Assembly (NCBI GenBank): GCA_009841255.1
Contig: VXMD01000035.1
Location: 4,453 to 68,452, forward strand
Direction of reading: 5' to 3'
Source: Candidatus Poribacteria bacterium
GTDB taxonomy: Bacteria; Poribacteria; WGA-4E; WGA-3G
Length of the DNA stretch: 64,000 bases
Part shown: piece after piece, positions 3,712-53,425 of the stretch
Layout of the letters: the number at the start of each line of letters is the position of its first letter
Numbering within the stretch: position 1 is the stretch's first letter
Notes under the pieces: model-generated
Told to the model about the DNA's origin: nothing
The model's input: the letters and a program-made list of their open reading frames with translations, nothing else
The model's database searches: none
Program-made: the position numbers and the translations under genes

Positions 3712-4431
3712 GTGGTTGCAGTGCAAAGCATCTCAACGGAAAATCAAAAAACACACGAACTCTTTGCGGCACTGAAGTTGCTATCGCCGGGGACCTATCT
3801 GAGGGAAGGTATTGATTATATCATCCAAAGTAAGACCGGTGGGCTTGTTGTTTTGGGGGATACGCCAGAGATTCTGAAATTGACAGAAGGCGGTTTTCGG
3901 ATTAATTGCCCCTATACACCGACAGGCTTATATGAGTTGTCAAAGATGGATGGCGCGATTATTCTTTCTGAAGATGTGAAGCGTATCGTGCGCGCGAACG
4001 TAACGTTGAGAACAAGTTCGACAATTCCCTCGAATGAAACAGGACTCCGCCACCGCTCGGCGGATAAATTCGCACGGCAGACTGAACATATTGTCCTCGC
4101 CGTATCACGCAGCCGCAATACGCTTACCCTGTATCTCAAAGATCAACGCTATATCTTCCAAGAGCCTCCTAAATCCACTTGGTCATATTCATCGCCAAAT
4201 GTGCCTCTGGATCAAGGGGTTTCGCAGTCCTCGCTGGAGACACCGCCCTACAAACCTGGAACGGCTCTGAGTAAGATGATGGCTACTGCCGAGGCGCAGT
4301 ATATCCTTGCGGCTTTGGAAGAAAATAAATGGAACATCCAGCGGACAGCAGAAGCATTAGAAGTTGAGCGGAGCAACTTGTACAGGAAAATGAACCGGTA
4401 TGGCATTTCTCGGCCAAGTTCCATGCGCTAA
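3712..4431 (+). CDS. Diadenylate-cyclase (DAC/DisA_N) domain protein with a C-terminal Fis-type helix-turn-helix
   Basis: The DAC motifs DGAIIL and GLRHRSA (DGA ... RHR) are present. The C-terminus, AEAQYILAALEENKWNIQRTAEALEVERSNLYRKM, is a Fis/NtrC-type HTH. GGAGG lies 5-9 nt upstream of the GTG start. Confidence 0.6.
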   Translation: MVAVQSISTENQKTHELFAALKLLSPGTYLREGIDYIIQSKTGGLVVLGDTPEILKLTEGGFRINCPYTPTGLYELSKMDGAIILSEDVKRIVRANVTLRTSSTIPSNETGLRHRSADKFARQTEHIVLAVSRSRNTLTLYLKDQRYIFQEPPKSTWSYSSPNVPLDQGVSQSSLETPPYKPGTALSKMMATAEAQYILAALEENKWNIQRTAEALEVERSNLYRKMNRYGISRPSSMR

Positions 4432-4497
4432 GATTAAATTTGACAGAACACTAATGAACCAGCCACGTAGAAAAAAATAAGCAAAAGGAGTTACAAA

Positions 4498-5826
4498 ATG
4501 AACCAGTTCATCGCTTTAGTACGGAAGGGAAACGTCGCACCCAGTGAAATTTTATGCATTGGGATGCTTCTCGTTTCGCTCAGTTTGGTAGGGTGTGGCG
4601 GAAAGCTCGGCAGCATAGAAATATCGGCAGTTGACACAGCAATCTCGGACGCTGAGGCGGCTATTGCAGCAGCAGTAGAGGCGGATGCACCGACACTCGC
4701 ATCTGATTTGTTTGAAACCGCGCAAGCCAACCTTGCGTCTGCAAAAATAGCACTCGAGGAGAAAAAAGGAAACGAGGCACTCCGTCTCGCGTATCAAGCG
4801 ATAGCGAATGCGACACTCGCACAAACGAATTCCATGAATATCACTAAAAACTCGGAATTGAATACCTCTATACTCCAGAAAGAGGCTGAAGCCGAATCAC
4901 TCCGCGCGACTGTTAACAGTAAAAAGGAGGAACTCGCAGGGCTTCAGTCCGAGATACAAGATGTTCAGAGTGAGGGAACGCAACTGAAACAGACCGTTCG
5001 CGACCTCGAGAAAAAGAATCGTGAGTTAGGCGATACTCGAGCCGCCTATGGAGAACAGGTCGCGCAACTCTCTGAAACTTTAGAGGAGATTCGGGGGCGG
5101 GCACGAAGGGCGGAAACCGAGATCCGTAATTACGGGAGAGAGGTTGCAGAACTCCGTCGGAAACTTGACGTTGCTGACAGAAGGGTTCAAGAGGAAGGAT
5201 ATCAGAAACGGACAGTTATCGCTGAGATAGATTCTCTGAGACGGCAACTCCGCGAACAGGCACAAATCTATACCGAGAAGCTCGCAGAAGCCAGCCAGCA
5301 AAATGCGGGTGCAAAACATGCGGAATACCTCAAACAGAAAGCACAAGAGGCACGGGCGTATGTTGACAGTCAACCGCAGCTCCATCCGACGAAGACGGGT
5401 CGCATTGCCCTTTCGGCAGAACAGATTGCAGCGGGTAAGATGGCACTCAGTAATTGGGAGCGCGCGTGGCAGGCGAAGGACCTCAATGGACACCTTGCCT
5501 ACTATGAACCTAATATTATTGCCGACAAAGTCGTGATTCACGAGAGTAAGGAACATCGAAATAAGATCGATCTCCAGCAACTCGAAGCAGATCTTCACCA
5601 GATGGGCACCCACGCGTGGAGCAAAGCCAAATCCGATACAGAGGTCGAGGGAGAAAGCGTTATCGGTATCCATCGGCTGACCCGCTTGGCGACGCCAGCC
5701 GCAGACGAGAACGCAACGGAGCTCTACAATATTTGGATTCGTGAAGTCTGGATGCATCAAGTGGGTAACGACTGGAGAATCCATCACGAAATCTGGCAAA
5801 TCTATGAGAACGTACCAAATTTCTAA
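4498..5826 (+). CDS. Lipoprotein with a long coiled-coil region and a C-terminal NTF2/SnoaL-like (DUF4440-like) domain
   Basis: There is a lipobox LVGC after a hydrophobic signal and an AGGAG ribosome-binding site. The central part is a heptad-rich E/Q/R region. The C-terminal module WERAWQAKDL...YENVPNF is homologous to repeats in the next gene. Confidence 0.55.
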   Translation: MNQFIALVRKGNVAPSEILCIGMLLVSLSLVGCGGKLGSIEISAVDTAISDAEAAIAAAVEADAPTLASDLFETAQANLASAKIALEEKKGNEALRLAYQAIANATLAQTNSMNITKNSELNTSILQKEAEAESLRATVNSKKEELAGLQSEIQDVQSEGTQLKQTVRDLEKKNRELGDTRAAYGEQVAQLSETLEEIRGRARRAETEIRNYGREVAELRRKLDVADRRVQEEGYQKRTVIAEIDSLRRQLREQAQIYTEKLAEASQQNAGAKHAEYLKQKAQEARAYVDSQPQLHPTKTGRIALSAEQIAAGKMALSNWERAWQAKDLNGHLAYYEPNIIADKVVIHESKEHRNKIDLQQLEADLHQMGTHAWSKAKSDTEVEGESVIGIHRLTRLATPAADENATELYNIWIREVWMHQVGNDWRIHHEIWQIYENVPNF

Positions 5827-43669: not shown

Positions 43670-46663
43670 TTGGATGCGACCCGAATGCCGGAGGTAGATT
43701 TACGTCCCGGCGACCAACTGCACGGTTTTGAAGTAAAAGCCGTCACACCGATCGACGAATTGCGAGCAGTGACGCTCGAATTGGCACACCAACAGAGCGG
43801 TGCCCGTTTACTACATCTCTATACAAACGACACTGAGAATCTCTTCTCCATTAATTTTCCGACCCCACCCGCAGATGATACAGGTGTCCCGCATATTCTG
43901 GAGCACGCCGTTTTAGCAGGTTCCCAGAAATTCCCGGTGAAAGAACCTTTCTTTGAGATGATTAAAATGAGCATGGCAACCTTTATCAACGCCATGACAA
44001 GTTCCGATTTTACCTGTTATCCGGTATCGAGCAACGTCAAAAAAGATCTCTTCAATTTAGCTGAAGTCTACTTTGACGCAGTTTTCCATCCGTTATTGAC
44101 GGAAAACACCTTCAAGCGTGAGGGACATCACCTCGCACCCGTTGATCCAGAAAATCCCACCGGCGATCTAAAAATAACAGGTATTGTCTATAACGAGATG
44201 AAAGGGGTATTCTCGGATCCCGAAGCTCGGTTGTATCGATCAATGATGTGTCAGCTCCTTCCCGATACGCTTTATGCCTGTGAATCCGGTGGTGACCCAG
44301 ATGCCATCCCGGACTTGACGTACGCGCAGCTCAAAGGGTTCCATGAAACCTATTATCACCCAAGTAACGGCTATTTCATTCTCTATGGAGACATTCCAAC
44401 GAGCGACTATCTCAGCTTCCTCGCGGATAAGTTGGATAAAATCCCAAAAAACGCTGCGAGTGCGACCCTGCGTCCGTTGCGACCGGAGGTTACACATCAA
44501 CCCAAGTGGGATACGCCACGGATTGTAACGGATACCTATCCTATTGGTGTAGATGAAACGCTCACAGAAAAGGCGTATCTCTCGCTCAGTTGGATCATTG
44601 GCGACGCGACCCGCCCAGAAGAAGTTGCCTTAGGGCAGATTTTGAGTCTCATTCTGGTCGGTAATGAAGGTGCCCCCCTCCGTAAGGTGATTATCGATTC
44701 TAAACTCGGTGCGGATCTCGTCTATTCTGGTGCTAGTTCCATTGGACCTGCAGCCATCTTTTATCTCATTCTCAAAGGAAGTGAAGCCGATCGCGCTGAA
44801 GCCTTTACGCAATTAGTAACCGATACCCTGACGCAGGTTGCAGACGCAGAGATTGATAGTGATAAGGTGGAAGCCGCGTTCCAGCAAGCGACCTATCATT
44901 ACCAAGAAGTCGCTTCGATGTTCCCGCTCCGCATGCTTTATCGTGTCCTCGAAGGGTGGATCTATGAAAAAGATTCGGACACTTTCCTAAAAATGGGAAA
45001 AACCCTTGCTGATGTTCGTCAGCAGTGGCTGGAAAACCCATCAATTTTCAACGACTTCATCCGCGAGAAATTCATTGAGAACCCACACCGCTTGACCAAT
45101 ATCCTATCGCCGGATCGGGATATGCAGGCGGAAATGGAGGCTGAACTCGCCGAACGGATGAAAGAGACGCGCGCACAACTCACGGATGAAGAGGTCCAAC
45201 GCATTGCCGCCGATGCCGCTGAACTGGAACGTCTCAACGGTATGCCTAATTCACCCGAAGCCCTCGCGAAACTGCCACAACTCCAAGTCAGCGATCTGCC
45301 TGAAAAACCGAAACATATCCCGACAACGGTCGAGACTGTCGGGGGGCGCGATCTGCTTCGCAACGATGTTTTTGCCAATGGTGTTAACTACCTCGTACTC
45401 AACTTCGATTTAAAAGGGTTACCGCAGCATCTTTGGACCTATCTACCCAGATATGCTGACGCTATTAGCAAACTCGGTGCCGCTGATATGAGTTATGAGG
45501 AGATGGCACAACGAACATCGGCGGTTACCGGCGGGATCGGGTGTTCGATGGGGTTCAGCACACGTACGCTTGACGCACGTCGTTCCTTGCAAAATATGCG
45601 GTTTCATCTCAAAGCACTTGATGGCAAAATGGACGCTGCACTCGGGGTCTTACGGGATCTACTTTTCGCTGTGAATCCGCGCGATACAGAACGTCTTCGG
45701 GATGTTTTGGTGCAAGCCGTCGCTGAATATCAGACAGAGATGATTCACGACGGATCAAGTACAGCAATTCATCACGCCTCACGTGGGCTTTCGTCAAATG
45801 CACATCTTGCCGAAATAATTTATGGGTTACCGCAACTCCACAACAGCGAGACGCTGCTCAACGATTTTGACGAACTTAATACCGACCTTATGGGTCATAT
45901 AGAAGAGATTCGCGATTTCCTGTTAACACGTGGACGCGTGACCGCCAGTTTCACCGGTTCCGATACCGCCTTTGACACAACGCGAACCAAACTCAGTGAA
46001 TGGCTTGACGCGATGCGGGACGAACCTGTTACTTCAGAATCGATCGCGTTTCAGCAGTTTGATACACCACCGCGGGAGGGGTTAGCGGGTCCGATTCAAA
46101 TTGCACACTGTGCACACGTAATGCCAGCACCCCACTATTCGCATCCGGATTCAGCACTGCTAACGATCGGTGCACATCTTATTCGACTGGATTACATACT
46201 GAGTGAAATCCGCTTTAAAGGTAATGCTTACGGCGCACGGTTCACCTATAGTCCATATGATGCAGTACTCTCCCAATCTTCGTATCGCGACCCACACGTC
46301 GCACGCACAATCAATGTCTTCGAGCAAACTGTTGACTACGTTAAAGAGGTCAAATGGACACAGACAGACATAGATCGCGCCATTATCGCTACAGCGAAAG
46401 ACGGTGAGAAACCGATCCGTCCAAGCCAAGCTGCAAGCGGTGCACTGAGTCAACATCTCGTTGGGCAGACGCGCGAGATGCGAGAGGAACGCTACGCACA
46501 ACTCCGCCAAGCAACACCTCCTGAAGTCAAGCGGGCACTTCTACAACTCTTGGAGGGAAACCGAGATAAAGCCGCAGTGTGTGTCGTTTCAAGTCGTGAA
46601 AAATTGGAGGCTGCGAATCGTGAGTTGGCACAGCCCTTGGTCATTGAGGACATTGTAGCCTAA
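43670..46663 (+). CDS. M16-family zinc metallopeptidase, M16C/PreP-like (insulinase-type)
   Basis: The inverted zinc motif HILEHAVLAGSQKFP (HxxEH) is present. The protein is 997 aa, with the two-half clam architecture typical of M16C. Confidence 0.85.
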   Translation: MDATRMPEVDLRPGDQLHGFEVKAVTPIDELRAVTLELAHQQSGARLLHLYTNDTENLFSINFPTPPADDTGVPHILEHAVLAGSQKFPVKEPFFEMIKMSMATFINAMTSSDFTCYPVSSNVKKDLFNLAEVYFDAVFHPLLTENTFKREGHHLAPVDPENPTGDLKITGIVYNEMKGVFSDPEARLYRSMMCQLLPDTLYACESGGDPDAIPDLTYAQLKGFHETYYHPSNGYFILYGDIPTSDYLSFLADKLDKIPKNAASATLRPLRPEVTHQPKWDTPRIVTDTYPIGVDETLTEKAYLSLSWIIGDATRPEEVALGQILSLILVGNEGAPLRKVIIDSKLGADLVYSGASSIGPAAIFYLILKGSEADRAEAFTQLVTDTLTQVADAEIDSDKVEAAFQQATYHYQEVASMFPLRMLYRVLEGWIYEKDSDTFLKMGKTLADVRQQWLENPSIFNDFIREKFIENPHRLTNILSPDRDMQAEMEAELAERMKETRAQLTDEEVQRIAADAAELERLNGMPNSPEALAKLPQLQVSDLPEKPKHIPTTVETVGGRDLLRNDVFANGVNYLVLNFDLKGLPQHLWTYLPRYADAISKLGAADMSYEEMAQRTSAVTGGIGCSMGFSTRTLDARRSLQNMRFHLKALDGKMDAALGVLRDLLFAVNPRDTERLRDVLVQAVAEYQTEMIHDGSSTAIHHASRGLSSNAHLAEIIYGLPQLHNSETLLNDFDELNTDLMGHIEEIRDFLLTRGRVTASFTGSDTAFDTTRTKLSEWLDAMRDEPVTSESIAFQQFDTPPREGLAGPIQIAHCAHVMPAPHYSHPDSALLTIGAHLIRLDYILSEIRFKGNAYGARFTYSPYDAVLSQSSYRDPHVARTINVFEQTVDYVKEVKWTQTDIDRAIIATAKDGEKPIRPSQAASGALSQHLVGQTREMREERYAQLRQATPPEVKRALLQLLEGNRDKAAVCVVSSREKLEAANRELAQPLVIEDIVA

Positions 46664-46689
46664 ACCGCTTGAGGCACGTATATTTTCCG

Positions 46690-46761
46690 TCGGTAGGTGC
46701 GGTTTCTAACCGCTTTACGTATGCATATCTTTCCTCGGTAGGTGCGGTTTCTAACCGCACC
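46690..46761. repeat. Two direct copies of the 24-bp hairpin repeat TCGGTAGGTGCGGTTTCTAACCGC
   Basis: The copies lie at 46690-46713 and 46735-46758, each a GGTGCGGTT/AACCGCACC stem. The same family occurs at 57614-57639, 17512-17545 (degenerate) and 53441-53464 (variant). Confidence 0.6.
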
Positions 46762-48211: not shown

Positions 48212-48958
48212 CTAATACGTTGCTCTCCCACCGCTGACATCGTAGCACTGTCCTGTCACGAAACTCGCTTCATCTGATGCCAAGAAATTTACCACAGCCG
48301 CAACCTCCTCCGGTTTCCCGACACGTCCCAATGGAATCTTACTCACCATATAATCGACAGTTGACTGTGCCATACCGTCCAAAATCGGCGTTTGGATCAC
48401 CGCGGGCGATACCGCATTTACACGGATATTATAGTCCGTTACCTCTTTCGCAAGTGCTTTCGTTAGGGTGATGACACCTCCCTTAGACACCGAATAAGGA
48501 ATGAGCGTCGGATTGCCCTCTTTCCCAGCAATGGAGGCGATGTTCACAATCCTGCCGTAGTCCTGCGCAATCATCGGACGGATGACCGCTTTACAACAGA
48601 GGAAAACACCGGTGAGGTTTACGCCGATCACGGCATCCCAATCCGCCTCTTCTAAATCGGTGAGTGGGAGTGTCCGTCCCGCAATACCCGCATTGTTGAC
48701 GAGGATGTCAACACGACCAAAGGTGGATATAACCTTCTCAACAGCGGCATTAACATCATTGGACTGTGTAACATCGGCTTGAACGGGCATTGCACTGCCG
48801 CCAGTCCCTTCAATTTCCCCTGCCACAGATGCTGCCGCATCCATGTTCAAATCCAAGACAGCAACGTTTGCCCCAGCGTTCGCAAGCCTCATAGCGATCG
48901 CTTTGCCGATACCCTGTCCTGCGCCTGTCACAATCGCAATTTTATCCGTTAGATTCAT
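48212..48958 (-). CDS. Short-chain dehydrogenase/reductase (FabG-like)
   Basis: The motifs TGAGQGIGKAIA and NNAG are present, and the length is typical for an SDR. Confidence 0.9.
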   Translation of the reverse strand: MNLTDKIAIVTGAGQGIGKAIAMRLANAGANVAVLDLNMDAAASVAGEIEGTGGSAMPVQADVTQSNDVNAAVEKVISTFGRVDILVNNAGIAGRTLPLTDLEEADWDAVIGVNLTGVFLCCKAVIRPMIAQDYGRIVNIASIAGKEGNPTLIPYSVSKGGVITLTKALAKEVTDYNIRVNAVSPAVIQTPILDGMAQSTVDYMVSKIPLGRVGKPEEVAAVVNFLASDEASFVTGQCYDVSGGRATY

Positions 48959-49511
48959 TAAAATCCCTCCCTTTCAGAAAATCGTCTAATTCTATTCCAA
49001 AAGCATCCGCTATCCGGTTGACGTAACAGAAAAAGCCAACGACCTCCACAATAGCGAAGAGTGCTTCGTCAGTGAGTCCGTAACCGCGGAGGTGTTCCAA
49101 GTCCGCCTGTGTCACGGTAGATGCTTCCTTTGTCACTTTGACTGCAAATTCGAGAATCGCCTTTGTCGTTTCGTCAACATCAGCCCTCTGAAAATCCGTC
49201 ACAATCTGTGAAATCTGATCGTCTGTGAATTGATCCCGCAACTCATCGGCGTGCGCTATTATTCAGTAGTGACATTCGTTCACTTTTGATACAACGGTAG
49301 CGATCATTTCCCGTTGCATCCGACTCAGTGGGCAGTCCGGGTCGTGCATCACGATTTTGTAGAGTTCAACGAAGGCGCGCATGCTTTTCGGACGCACACT
49401 GAAAAGTTTGACGATATTGTAAAGCTGCCCCGCCCGTGCAATTGCCGCCTCATATTCTTCTTTCACGATGCCGGTAGCATCTGCCGCATCTACGGTTTGG
49501 ATCCATGCCAT
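48942..49511 (-). CDS. AhpD-like / carboxymuconolactone-decarboxylase-family peroxidase-related protein with an in-frame TGA (candidate selenocysteine) at 49263-49265
   Basis: The 82-aa and 99-aa ORFs in the track are in the same frame, separated only by one TGA. Translating through the TGA gives ...E(x11)C-H-Y-U-I-I-A-H..., which exactly matches the AhpD catalytic motif E(x)11CxxC(x)3H with Sec in place of the second Cys. The C-terminal half (TKAILEFAVKVT...LRGYGLTDEALFAIVEVVGFFCYVNRIADAFG) is the conserved CMD-domain tail. Confidence 0.55.
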
Positions 49512-49514
49512 ATT

Positions 49515-50744
49515 CTATTCTCCAATCACAACGCCGTATTCACCAACAACGGCGCCTTTGTGTCCGGTTTGGTAGTGTAGATGTCTTTCGCCAACAATCG
49601 GTTGTGTGCTTTGCACTTCAACCGTGCCACGCACTTTCCCCATTGCGCCTTCATCCATATCTACACAGCAGAGCGGTTTAATCTGGCGATGCACTTGCCG
49701 CTGGATATGTCCTTGTCGGTTTCGGACGATGACATTGACAAAGGCGTCTGCTTCCCCGACGTTAAGGAATCGGAACCAGTCCCAGGCACCCCCCGCAATT
49801 TCAGGGAAAAAGAGTCGGATGCCAATCTGTCCGCCCTCCACCGATGCACCGGGTAGATCGATAATGGCTGTCCCACTTTGCATGTGTCGTTCCGCGACAA
49901 CCGGTTGATTGCTCCGCACTTCTACGGAGGATTTCACTTTAATGTCATCCATAGGGGGTGTCCAACACTCAAAAGGCCTGAGTCGATCCCGTTTTTTTGT
50001 CCATGTCGATTCTGCGTTGTCATCTTTCCGTGCGATCATTGTTACTTCTGCATCTTCTCTTCCGACGTTAACAATCACAACCCAATCTTCCCATGCAGGA
50101 CCGACCTCCGGGAAAAAGAGCGTCCGGGGCGCATCCGCAATTACCTGTCCAAATTGCCCGACAGATGTCTTGCCGCCTTGATAGTGGAGATGGCGTTCCC
50201 CAACAATCGGTTGTGAACTTTGCATCTCAACTGTGCCTGTGACGTTACCCATAACCCTTTCATTGAGATCCCAACAACAGAGAGGTTCGATGACATGGTG
50301 TCGTTGCCTGAGCACATCGCCGTTCCTATTTCGGACGGTGATATTGACGTGTGCCTCCGCCTCACCGACATTTAGCACTCGAAACCAGTCGTGGGCACCA
50401 GAGACCAACTCCGGAAAGAAGAGTCTCTGTCCGACGGTTCCGTATTCTGGTGCCGCGCCAACAAAATCGAGCACATTCGTGTCCTTATGCATGTGCCGTT
50501 CTGCCACAATCGGTTGGTCCGCAGTGAACTGCATTGAGGAGTTCGTTTTAATTTCCTCAACGTCCGGTATCCAGGACTCAAAGGAACTTATTGTTTTCTC
50601 CGCAGACCAAGTAGGGTGCCCGTTGTCGGCATGCCTCGCGATTGCAGTCACACGGGTATCTTCAGTTCCTACGTTCGTGACTTGGACCCAGTCTTGCCAT
50701 TCGGGTCCCACCTCTGGGAAATAAAGGGTCGTTGCACCTGCCAT
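49515..50744 (-). CDS. Protein of four ~100-aa tandem repeats with conserved QPIV(G/A)ERH(L/M)H and PLCC(W/V)D motifs. The family is unknown.
   Basis: The internal repeats run LFFPE(L/V)..W.DWF..LNVGEA.A.VN..VRNR.G...RQ.H..I.PLCC.D......G.V.GTVE.QS.QPIVGERHLHYQ. There is no signal peptide. It is the first gene of an operon with the AhpD-like and SDR genes. Confidence 0.55.
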   Translation of the reverse strand: MAGATTLYFPEVGPEWQDWVQVTNVGTEDTRVTAIARHADNGHPTWSAEKTISSFESWIPDVEEIKTNSSMQFTADQPIVAERHMHKDTNVLDFVGAAPEYGTVGQRLFFPELVSGAHDWFRVLNVGEAEAHVNITVRNRNGDVLRQRHHVIEPLCCWDLNERVMGNVTGTVEMQSSQPIVGERHLHYQGGKTSVGQFGQVIADAPRTLFFPEVGPAWEDWVVIVNVGREDAEVTMIARKDDNAESTWTKKRDRLRPFECWTPPMDDIKVKSSVEVRSNQPVVAERHMQSGTAIIDLPGASVEGGQIGIRLFFPEIAGGAWDWFRFLNVGEADAFVNVIVRNRQGHIQRQVHRQIKPLCCVDMDEGAMGKVRGTVEVQSTQPIVGERHLHYQTGHKGAVVGEYGVVIGE

Positions 50745-50945
50745 TGCTGCCTCCTCTTTAAAGTCTTTTCTGTTACGATACGCACTCGCAAAGTGTAATT
50801 TAAGAATCTCGTATTGGAGATGACTGTTACTATTTTAACTTGCATATATTTATCTTTTCCACTACAATTTTGGTTCAATGCCATTTAGTCCACATCTATT
50901 AAATGGCGCTCGCAATTCTACTACACATCTTGAGGAGAATATTCT

Positions 50946-51233
50946 ATGGCAGCGAAGAAACTCTCAGACGCTGAAATTCAGGAAAACTTGGGACAGCTCA
51001 ACGGCTGGACTGTGGAAGACGGTAAGTTACACAAAGAATTCCAGTTTGATACCTTTGTTACGGCGTTCGGTTTTATGGCACAACTCGCCTTAATTGCTGA
51101 ATCGATGAACCACCATCCGGAATGGTTTAACGTCTATAACCGCGTGACGATTGACCTGATGACCCACGATGCGGGCGGCATCAGCGAGCTTGATTTCCAG
51201 TGGGCAAAGCACGCAGATGCGATAAGTGGTTAA
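50946..51233 (+). CDS. phhB: Pterin-4a-carbinolamine dehydratase
   Basis: The NHHPEW motif is present, and the length (95 aa) and overall pattern are typical. Confidence 0.8.
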
Positions 51234-51281: not shown

Positions 51282-52229
51282 ATGGATAATACAAAAGTCT
51301 TGATTGGCAGTCGGCAAGAATCAGAAATTGAGGCGATGCTATCGGATGTTCCCCCAGGGGTTGAAGTTCGCTTTTTACCACACGGTGAATCCTTGCGTGA
51401 CCACATCGCTGATGTTCATATTTTATTTGGACACCTTAGCGAGGATGCGATGCAAGAAGCAATGGCATTGCGTTGGGTGCACCAACCCCATGCAGGGGTT
51501 GAAGGATTTATGTATCCCGCATTCAAAGCGAGCGAGGTCATACTCACCAACTGTCGAGGCTTGTATGGCACACAAATCGCCGAGCACGCCTTTGCCTTGC
51601 TTTTATCCATAACGCGTCGGATTCCCGATCAATTGGAATTTATGAAGACGAAGCATTGGGAACGCGTTTCGTGTGTTGAACTAGCAGGCATGACGATGGG
51701 GATTCTCGGACTCGGTGGCATCGGACGGGCGATCGCCGCACGCGCACAGGCGTTTGAATTTAATGTTATTGCGGCTGATGTAGAACCGATTGATAAACCC
51801 GATCTCGTCTCAGAACTTTACAGTTTAGAGGGATTGATGGCGTTCTTGGCGAAATCGAACATTGTCATGGTGTGTTGTCCAAGTACCCCCGAAACGCATA
51901 AACTCCTATCGGATGCGCAATTTAATCAGATGCCCGATGCGAGTTACCTCGTAAATGTCAGTCGTGGCAAGATTATTGACGAAACCGCATTGCTAACCGC
52001 ACTTCAGAACGGGAAATTAGCTGGGGCAGGACTGGATGTAACGTATACGGAACCCTGTCCACCGGAAAGCCCGTTGTGGGAGCAACAGAACGTGATTCTG
52101 ACCTCACACAGTGCGGGGTCCTCGCAGCACATCCGGAGACGTGCCATGCAACTTTTTATAGACAATCTACACCGTTACGTGAAAGGTGAGCCTTTAATCA
52201 ACGTCGTTGACAAGCAGAAGGGATATTAA
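51282..52229 (+). CDS. D-isomer-specific 2-hydroxyacid dehydrogenase family protein
   Basis: It has the NAD-binding motif GLGGIGRAIA and the catalytic R/E/H arrangement. Confidence 0.85.
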   Translation: MDNTKVLIGSRQESEIEAMLSDVPPGVEVRFLPHGESLRDHIADVHILFGHLSEDAMQEAMALRWVHQPHAGVEGFMYPAFKASEVILTNCRGLYGTQIAEHAFALLLSITRRIPDQLEFMKTKHWERVSCVELAGMTMGILGLGGIGRAIAARAQAFEFNVIAADVEPIDKPDLVSELYSLEGLMAFLAKSNIVMVCCPSTPETHKLLSDAQFNQMPDASYLVNVSRGKIIDETALLTALQNGKLAGAGLDVTYTEPCPPESPLWEQQNVILTSHSAGSSQHIRRRAMQLFIDNLHRYVKGEPLINVVDKQKGY

Positions 52230-52351: not shown

Positions 52352-53425
52352 ATGAGCCAGAAAACGTATCGTGCCGCAGCAATCGGGCATACAGGTGCCG
52401 GCAACTTTGGGCATGGACTCCACACCCCATATAAAAATATAGAGAACGTTGAATTTATCGCTGTTTCGGATCCGAACGAAGAGGGTCGGGAAAAGGCAGC
52501 CGCGGAGGCAGGTGCCTTGCGAAGTTACGCCGATTATCGGGATATGCTTGAGAAAGAGGATCTTGATATTGTGAGCGTCTGTCCCCGTTGGACCTCAGAT
52601 CACGTTGCTATGATAACTGCGTGTCTTGAAGCAGGCTGCAGCGTCTACAGTGAGAAGCCGATGACGAGTACACTCGCCGATGGTGATATAATCGTTGAAA
52701 CAGCAAAAGCACACGGATTAAAGGTTGCTGTGGCGCACCAAGCGGTCTATCTACCGGCAACACATGCGATTAAAAAGATGCTCGACGACGGGAAAATCGG
52801 CACAATCCAAGCCATCCACGCTAGCGGTAAACAGGATCATCGCGGGGGTGGTGAGGATATGATTGTTCTCGGCACCCACACGTTTAATATGATGCGTTTC
52901 TTCGTCGGTGATGTCGCGTGGATGCAGTCCCACGTTACCACAAACGGAAAAGAAGTGGCGTCTGGTGGCGACCACGAACCGACGGAACCTGTTGGACCCG
53001 TCGCGGGTGATTGCATCAACAGTTACTTCGCTTTCAAAAGCGGTGTCTCTGGCTTTTTTGAATCCCGGAGAGATCAGGCTGGCTCCGGCAGATACGGCAT
53101 GGAGATTGTCGGTAGCGAAGGCATTTTCTCGCTCCGTGGTGATGTTGCAAACCGACTCATGGTCTATCCATATCCGGTACTGCTCCCTTCAAATCCGGGT
53201 CAGGAGTGGGAGGCAATCGACTTGGACCAGACACCTTTCTCCAGTGGAAATGAACTCGCCATTCGTGATCTGATTGATGCGATTGAGAACGACCGGAAAC
53301 CGATATCTGCAGCCGAAGACGCCGTCGCCGCCTTGGAAATGATCCTCGGTGCCTACGAATCTCAACTGTCAGGACAGCGGGTCTCCTTCCCAGTCGCAAA
53401 CCGTGAGCATCCTTTGAGCAGATAA
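52352..53425 (+). CDS. Gfo/Idh/MocA-family oxidoreductase
   Basis: The N-terminus AAIGHTGAGNFGHG is a Rossmann fold, and the EKP motif is present. Confidence 0.85.
   Translation: MSQKTYRAAAIGHTGAGNFGHGLHTPYKNIENVEFIAVSDPNEEGREKAAAEAGALRSYADYRDMLEKEDLDIVSVCPRWTSDHVAMITACLEAGCSVYSEKPMTSTLADGDIIVETAKAHGLKVAVAHQAVYLPATHAIKKMLDDGKIGTIQAIHASGKQDHRGGGEDMIVLGTHTFNMMRFFVGDVAWMQSHVTTNGKEVASGGDHEPTEPVGPVAGDCINSYFAFKSGVSGFFESRRDQAGSGRYGMEIVGSEGIFSLRGDVANRLMVYPYPVLLPSNPGQEWEAIDLDQTPFSSGNELAIRDLIDAIENDRKPISAAEDAVAALEMILGAYESQLSGQRVSFPVANREHPLSR

Follow-up and report, generated by a model that had tools for sequence, protein, structure and literature searches.

The ASRAH superfamily was defined by de Souza, Iyer and Aravind in 2009, starting from ASRT, the Anabaena sensory rhodopsin transducer (PMC2739507). 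Three families were distinguished, namely intracellular solo proteins that crystallise as tetramers, secreted four-domain fusions to amidases, and two-domain lipoproteins of actinobacteria. It was argued that all of these families can make tetramer-like assemblies, in which the adjacent subunit completes a ligand cleft on one sheet face. The residues given as diagnostic were a Trp in strand 1 and an almost invariant Asn that closes strand 2. Binding of sugars or other small molecules was predicted from gene contexts, the published ones being sugar-metabolism operons, and from a diol lying beside the strand-2 His and Cys of TM1070 (PMC2739507). ASRT has also been reported to bind and loop double-stranded DNA and to affect reporter expression, with DNA being contacted via its free C-terminal tail (R109, Q110 and N113; PMC8660804). 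Here, we describe a gene of a Candidatus Poribacteria bacterium that encodes four tandem ASRAH domains in a single chain. It lies on the reverse strand of a stretch of 64,000 nucleotides (henceforth referred to as the window), which spans positions 4,453 to 68,452 of the forward strand of contig VXMD01000035.1 (assembly GCA_009841255.1).

Four tandem repeats with an ASRAH fold

The gene is complete and its product was divided by cuts at residues 107, 207 and 310 into four units of about 100 residues (Table 1). In pairwise local alignment, all six pairs of units align far above shuffled controls (z = 17 to 56). An earlier note, made from the sequence of the window, had claimed four repeats of this size; there are indeed four, but they are not equivalent, as two types alternate in the order A-B-A-B. 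The two A repeats (A1 and A2) are 49% identical and the two B repeats (B1 and B2) 64%, with about 33–47% between A and B over the aligned part. Among the motifs that the note had assigned to every repeat, (Q)P(I/V)V(G/A)ERH is common to all four. On the other hand, the stretch DWF.VLNVGEA, in the form DWF.xLNVGEA, and the PLCC motif (C156/C157 and C359/C360) occur in the B repeats only; the A repeats read W.DWV.V.NVG and have no Cys pair, and the whole protein contains five Cys. The repeat ending QPIV(G/A)ERHxH is general as far as ERH is concerned, but the third repeat, A2, reads QPVVAERHMQ, where most homologues have His in place of the final Gln. A search of the gene for tandem repeats at the DNA level was negative, so the duplication is old and seen at the protein level only.

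An AlphaFold2 model of the full-length protein, computed from the family alignment, is all-beta and has a mean pLDDT of 93.8 and a pTM of 0.90. Since the pTM is this high for a chain of four domains, the domains are predicted to hold a fixed mutual arrangement, as one rigid body. When the full model was compared with the PDB using Foldseek, the sole specific match was TM1070 of Thermotoga maritima (1NC7; probability 1.00, TMt 0.70, 2.2 Å over 107 columns). Full-length matches to complement C3/C4/C5, alpha-2-macroglobulin, GH2 enzymes and toxin pores were rejected, as these have TM scores below 0.2 and represent generic multi-beta-sandwich similarity. A model of a single B repeat (B1; pLDDT 89.8) has eight strands. 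Its top 19 PDB matches are all TM1070 or ASRT entries (1nc7, 2ii7/8/9/a; probability 1.00, TMq 0.61–0.80, with 0.78–0.80 for 1nc7), after which there is a sharp fall to FlgD and some Ruminococcus carbohydrate-binding modules (CBMs), with TM scores of about 0.5 or lower.

These beta-sandwich CBMs, from Ruminococcus flavefaciens (5FU2 and 5AOT), are the next-best structural neighbours (TM score about 0.5) and carry their ligand site on the sheet face. Their conserved surfaces rich in Trp, Asp, Arg and His, which are typical of sugar sites, are similar to what is seen in the Poribacteria repeats. In contrast, CBMs (including CBM4) differ in strand topology (PMC2739507) and show no sequence relationship to the repeats, and no catalytic domain is fused to the Poribacteria protein.

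A Pfam scan of the window protein returned nothing above threshold, giving sub-threshold noise and a weak ASRT match at residues 117–153 (E 0.13; 12.7 bits, with the cut-off at 25). Individual repeats gave scattered noise against Pfam. In a scan of 28 family members, only three showed even weak matches to ASRT (PF07100), and no match to DUF5719 (PF18986) was reported for these members or for the query. Matches near the threshold were obtained in 8 of the 28 for Pfam PF23642, annotated as 'YnhH-like', the best of them reaching 26.5 bits where the cut-off is 27; in homologue P0091 the match covers the last strand and the linker (residues 176–211, QPIVGERHxHY..GG...G). Likewise, no NCBIfam model passes for the protein, which is called 'hypothetical' in every source, and the description as uncharacterised in the earlier note holds good. 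Sequence searches of the PDB gave no match with phmmer and one chance match, to chalcone synthase, with the repeat profile. A literature search on 'YnhH-like' retrieved an unrelated acronym only, and a search on DUF5719 retrieved no paper mentioning it.

A profile built from an alignment of 44 repeats was subsequently searched against 1.84 billion cluster representatives and retrieved 883 proteins at E ≤ 1e-3. Beyond the Poribacteria family, the matches are large proteins of 500–3000 residues, for most of which HMMER gives four matched stretches. When a stricter i-E value below 0.01 is required of each domain, four domains are counted in 56 proteins, three in 54 and two in 15. In these large relatives, the repeats form contiguous arrays with a period of 105 residues, usually at the C-terminus. 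All ten large non-Poribacteria matches that were scanned carry Pfam DUF5719, and six of the ten also carry ASRT (hmmsearch, E 1e-25 to 1e-11); in the four that were cross-checked, DUF5719 and ASRT coincide with the stretches matched by the repeat profile. Profile–profile comparison using hhalign linked the repeats to DUF5719-type repeats (97.0%, P 9.1e-11, 82 columns) and the latter to the ASRT family (97.7%, P 2e-12), for which an alignment was built from the PDB sequences and their homologues. The direct comparison of the repeats with the ASRT family gave 78% (P 1.8e-5), in the same register.

In these alignments, the strand-1 motif LFFPE of the Poribacteria family corresponds to YFAEG in DUF5719-type repeats and to FFPDG in the ASRT family. 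The D-W of strand 2 (x-x-D-W) corresponds to E-W (F-x-E-W) and to (H)E, respectively, and the (G/A)-E-R of the last strand to A-E-R and to (M)-Q. The diagnostic Asn that closes strand 2 is present and aligns with the Asn of both ASRT and DUF5719, LNV being the equivalent of QNP in DUF5719-type repeats, and GG...G in the linker is a further equivalent. The E-x-H-x-H motif of the last strand aligns with A-E-R-P-M-Y of DUF5719-type repeats and, via these, its Glu can be equated with the Gln that is invariant in the ASRT family. The fold and family, which the earlier note could not recognise, can accordingly be named from the single-repeat model and the profile–profile comparison. The repeats are ASRAH domains, closest to DUF5719-type repeats, and fall within neither Pfam family as now modelled. 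The note had counted it against its own view if the repeats were to map to a well-known domain with an established function; the domain is a known and named one, but its function is predicted computationally only.

With ASRT (2II7) and TM1070 (1NC7), the Poribacteria repeats share the eight-stranded beta-sandwich (TM score 0.6–0.8 per repeat), the strand-2 Asn, FFP(D/E) in strand 1 and a (P)(I/V)V strand ahead of the C-terminus, as well as a cytoplasmic location, predicted for the Poribacteria protein. The assembly consists of four units in both cases, that is four subunits in ASRT/TM1070 and four fused domains here. However, ASRT and TM1070 are solo proteins of 115–130 residues, in contrast to the 409 residues and A-B-A-B arrangement of the Poribacteria protein. 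The SHEshChhN signature of the ASRT family has its counterpart in x-x-D-W-x-(R/Q)-x-x-N, and the Poribacteria gene has no rhodopsin context. In view of the common fold and ASRT's reported ability to bind and loop DNA, the protein could be a DNA-binding regulator, its pseudo-tetramer binding and bending promoter DNA. Yet the free C-terminal tail of ASRT has no equivalent here, the corresponding segments being inter-domain linkers, and the protein is strongly acidic, with a net charge of about −15. We consider such a role very improbable.

DUF5719-type ASRAH repeats are the nearest sequence relatives and have both the period of about 105 residues and the tandem tetrads in common with the Poribacteria family. 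This set takes in the dyad and tetrad families of the 2009 study, with lipoproteins from actinobacteria, amidase fusions from Chloroflexi and numerous large proteins that are secreted. Their tetrad is usually the C-terminal module of a larger protein, whereas the Poribacteria tetrad is the entire protein, and they read AERPMYF where the Poribacteria family has (G/A)ERHxH(Y). The N-terminus of one large relative, P0186, was read and is signal-peptide-like. In contrast, the Poribacteria protein has neither N- nor C-terminal extensions; its N-terminus reads MAGATTLYFPE, with strand 1 beginning at residue 6, and it shows neither a signal peptide nor a lipobox, a transmembrane or hydrophobic segment or an anchoring module. 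From the start of strand 1 at residue 6 and the absence of a signal peptide or hydrophobic segment, the tetrad is predicted to be a cytoplasmic protein. The same observations argue against a structural or envelope protein that binds cell-surface polysaccharide in the manner of the secreted DUF5719 tetrads. Although the closest outside relatives, including P0186, are large proteins with a C-terminal tetrad, and weak similarity to an S-layer Slr4 model was found, we regard this option as highly unlikely.

Conserved residues and proposed function

A search of about 5.8 billion proteins yielded 152 homologues, almost always 408–418 residues long. All of them are named 'hypothetical protein', and those that bear an organism name all come from Candidatus Poribacteria. 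A scan of one genome per species yielded 153 relatives, the best 80 of which are all from metagenome-assembled genomes of Poribacteria. The family is thus apparently restricted to Poribacteria, from which every named or genome-assigned homologue originates.

Conservation was evaluated in an alignment of 28 family members with identities down to 39%. E-R-H of the last strand is invariant in repeats 1, 3 and 4, while in repeat 2 the Glu and both His are invariant and the Arg is at least 90% conserved. The second His of the motif is invariant in both B repeats. In A1 its conservation is at least 90%, whereas A2 varies at this position (Q289 in the window protein). Over the 44 aligned repeats of the profile, the Glu and the first His are invariant in every one, and the Arg and the second His are at least 90% conserved. 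Also invariant in the 28 members are W-x-D-W (A units), D(-W) (B units) and the Asn six residues past that Asp (N24, N125, N226 and N328), which is present in all 44 repeats as well. The Glu, the first His and the second His alternate along the last strand and hence lie on the same face. No Cys is found among the invariant columns, and outside the closest clade, that of the sponge symbionts, PLCC is replaced by PLGFW, PKGFW, PMGWW and similar sequences. The di-cysteine redox chemistry suggested in the earlier note does not survive this comparison, as the Cys pair is specific to one clade.

Complete two-repeat genes (about 205 residues) with the same E-R-H-x-H motifs were found on several independent contigs. 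Dyad P0132 is present on six contigs, one of them 94.5 kb long, and dyad P0130 on three contigs from two data sources. A single-domain gene of 103 residues was seen in one case, on a contig of 630 bp, and is less certain. The dyad and single-repeat genes are located at 4001–4612 (locus L094), 401–1030 (L092), 976–1593 (L090) and 123–434 (L091). Within individual tetrad proteins, the two halves (A1B1 and A2B2) are 57–59% identical, compared with 43–48% for units in the same position in different Poribacteria clades, and no positional signal of the units is left between clades. The likeness of the halves points to either gene conversion between them or repeated AB-to-ABAB duplication from dyad ancestors. 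The four-domain unit expected of ASRAH proteins, as a homotetramer or as dyads or tetrads in one chain, is represented in the Poribacteria family by the four tandem domains modelled as one body and by the dyad versions. Given the tetramers of ASRT and TM1070 and the dyads and tetrads of other ASRAH proteins, this supports the logic of a four-domain functional unit.

On balance, we favour a role for this stand-alone tetrad, predicted to be cytoplasmic, as a single-chain pseudo-tetrameric binder or sensor of a small polar ligand, which works with a short-chain dehydrogenase/reductase (SDR) in the sponge-symbiont clade. The four ASRAH domains, fused in one chain, would fold as an intramolecular pseudo-tetramer. 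Clefts between the domains would be lined by the D-W-x-R/Q of strand 2, which takes the place of the His and Cys that contact the ligand in TM1070, and by that face of the last strand which bears the E-x-H-x-H. The ligand would be a small polar molecule, most probably a sugar or a sugar-derived metabolite, which the protein would bind or sense without being an enzyme. Its partner in the sponge-symbiont clade would be the SDR encoded just downstream.

Several points weigh against this proposal. The diagnostic Trp of strand 1 is missing and Leu or Ile is found instead (RLFFPE, TLYFPE, KIYFPQ), compared with KWFFPD in ASRT and WYFAEG in DUF5719; this hydrophobic substitution weakens the case for ASRAH membership without excluding it. 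Furthermore, the His and Cys that contact the ligand in the ASRT family are not conserved, the segment reading (W/A)-x-D-W-(V/F)-(Q/R)-x-x-N. The tetramer-like packing and the lining of the pocket are deduced from strand alternation and from the alignment with TM1070. Sugar binding by ASRAH domains is itself a computational prediction, the reported activities of ASRT being rhodopsin and DNA binding. Four more distant Poribacteria contexts contain neither the SDR gene nor the AhpD-like gene that precedes it in the window, and have no common partner, and the linkage to the SDR may be simple synteny in one clade. Finally, a metal site would look like the conserved E-x-H-x-H on one strand face as well.

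Genomic neighbourhood and alternative functions

The four-domain gene, an AhpD-like gene of the 'peroxidase-related' type and the SDR gene are arranged head-to-tail on the same strand (Table 1). As previously noted, 3 nt separate the stop codon of the first from the start codon of the second (ATG, 49509–49511), and the AhpD-like and SDR open reading frames (ORFs) overlap by 17 nt. Scans for promoters and terminators at the locus gave nothing better than shuffled sequences. No convincing terminator interrupts the series, and co-transcription in the window is plausible from the spacing of the genes. The arrangement of the three genes that the earlier note took to be co-transcribed is upheld, but the tie to the AhpD-like gene is weak. 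In the sponge-symbiont clade (identity of at least 73%), all loci on contigs that extend far enough have the SDR gene directly downstream. In contrast, an AhpD-like gene between the two is full-length in about 52 loci; in about 25 of the 80 closest genomes, roughly a third, it is missing or survives as a remnant. Where it is missing, the SDR gene often begins 3–10 nt past the stop codon of the four-domain gene. The AhpD-like gene is a variable neighbour, not a conserved partner, and a functional operon with this selenoprotein was rejected as a conserved feature, since the gene is often missing or decayed.

Table 1. Location in the window of the four-domain ASRAH gene, its repeats and motifs, and the two genes downstream
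Feature	Position	Strand	Remarks
Four-domain ASRAH protein gene, complete	49515..50744	-	From the ORF list; 409 aa, 45.7 kDa, pI 5.5
TAG stop codon of the gene	49515..49517	-	Included in the ORF
Shine-Dalgarno sequence AGGAGG	50750..50755	-	5 nt 5' of the ATG; read from the sequence
Repeat A1, residues 5-107	50424..50732	-	Type A; LYFPE, W16-x-D18-W19, N24, E82-R-H84-x-H86
Repeat B1, residues 108-207	50124..50423	-	Type B; LFFPE, D119-W, N125, C156-C157, E183-R-H185-x-H187-Y
Repeat A2, residues 208-310	49815..50123	-	Type A; LFFPE, W218-x-D220-W221, N226, E285-R-H287-x-Q289
Repeat B2, residues 311-409	49518..49814	-	Type B; LFFPE, D322-W, N328, C359-C360, E386-R-H388-x-H390-Y
E-x-H-x-H strand motif, copy 1 (E82..H86)	50487..50501	-	Family-specific
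E-x-H-x-H motif, copy 2 (E183..H187)	50184..50198	-	
E-x-H-x-H motif, copy 3 (E285..Q289)	49878..49892	-	
E-x-H-x-H motif, copy 4 (E386..H390)	49575..49589	-	
AhpD-like 'peroxidase-related' gene	48942..49511	-	In-frame TGA (C-H-Y-U); TIGR01926 146.6 bits with Cys substituted
SDR gene (FabG / glucose-1-dehydrogenase-like)	48212..48958	-	Above the NCBIfam cut-offs of the glucose 1-dehydrogenase and FabG-like reductase subfamilies

Both the conserved motif and the adjoining gene bear on the proposal that the protein is a metalloprotein or redox protein, in which the E-x-H-x-H of each domain would bind a transition metal that is stored, sensed or used, possibly with the AhpD-like selenoprotein. 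The Glu and both His lie on the same side of the strand and are invariant or nearly so across the four repeats of the family, the motif is family-specific (DUF5719 relatives have E-x-P-x-Y at this place), and the AhpD-like gene follows at 3 nt in the window and adjoins in about 52 related genomes. However, this gene is dispensable, given its loss or decay among the close genomes and its absence from the distant contexts, and the Cys pair is not conserved. Moreover, no metal site is known in ASRT or TM1070, and Trp, Asp, Arg, His and Glu are just as typical of carbohydrate-binding sites. We judge a metal or redox function to be unlikely, although it is the foremost of the alternatives to a small-molecule binder.

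The tight coupling to the SDR gene in one clade, with the short spacing where the AhpD-like gene is absent, and the polar residues that are invariant in all four domains would also suit an enzyme on an ASRAH scaffold, such as an isomerase, epimerase or hydrolase that acts on the SDR substrate by means of catalytic Glu, His or Asp. Catalytic ASRAH domains are not known, though, and in the large relatives the tetrad is appended C-terminally to other modules, for instance beta-helix/NosD or TIG, as is typical of binding modules. In addition, the link with the SDR is absent in distant family members. An enzymatic role is therefore, in our estimation, improbable.

A more far-reaching version of these two ideas takes the four E-x-H-x-H strands as metal or catalytic centres that evolved in this Poribacteria lineage on a binding scaffold. 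They would operate in a pathway specific to sponge symbionts, alongside the SDR and, in genomes that have it, the AhpD-like selenoprotein, the halves being kept alike by concerted evolution as a symmetric pair. We hold this to be unlikely; if true, no metalloprotein or enzyme with the ASRAH fold would have preceded it. The reading that we favour remains a binder or sensor of a small polar ligand that is not catalytic.

Apart from its bearing on the four-domain gene, the AhpD-like gene shows an in-frame TGA within C-(H/D/Y)-Y-U at the aligned codon in all 52 full-length orthologues (loci L010–L089), with both flanks conserved, which strongly suggests that this TGA encodes a genuine selenocysteine. 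A SECIS-like hairpin was sought by simple folding of the 70 nt after the TGA, and the hairpin obtained was not significant (z 0.95). Loss or decay of the gene recurs among close relatives (L002/L003, 6228–6413; L039, L064 and L065; L037–L045 and others), some of which keep an N- or C-terminal fragment of it ahead of the SDR gene, while in others the SDR gene follows the four-domain gene after a few nt.

Upstream and divergently oriented from the four-domain gene are genes for a pterin-4a-carbinolamine dehydratase (50946–51233, + strand) and a Gfo/Idh/MocA oxidoreductase (52352–53425, + strand). The same two genes are found upstream in a relative with 75% identity, L002 (4492–4779 and 3377–4450, respectively). 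The window has an extra ORF between this pair, at 51282–52229, which was assigned as 2-hydroxyacid-dehydrogenase-like by its translation. Elsewhere in the window, positions 46663–46761 hold two tandem copies of a 45-nt unit with 82% identity, both of which close with the palindrome-forming GGTGCGGTTTCTAACCGC(ACC). The repeat lies at the 3' end of an M16-peptidase gene and runs into the listed start of an ORF for a PQQ-like beta-propeller. This element looks like an intergenic hairpin of the REP type.

Implications for the ASRAH superfamily and for Poribacteria

The ASRAH proteins known from the 2009 study were solo domains when intracellular, and tetrads were found in secreted amidase fusions only. 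The intracellular stand-alone dyads and tetrads described here represent a new architecture in this superfamily. For the biological role of ASRT-like proteins, both a sugar sensor and a DNA-binding transducer are under discussion. The chains with two and four domains, together with one possible single-domain gene, constitute a natural test of the ASRT tetramer as the functional unit. In addition, a rigid single chain with four non-identical sites could suit structural and ligand-screening work. For Candidatus Poribacteria, a phylum of uncultivated sponge symbionts, these results assign a protein that had been annotated as hypothetical to a fold and a superfamily and propose a function for it that can be tested.

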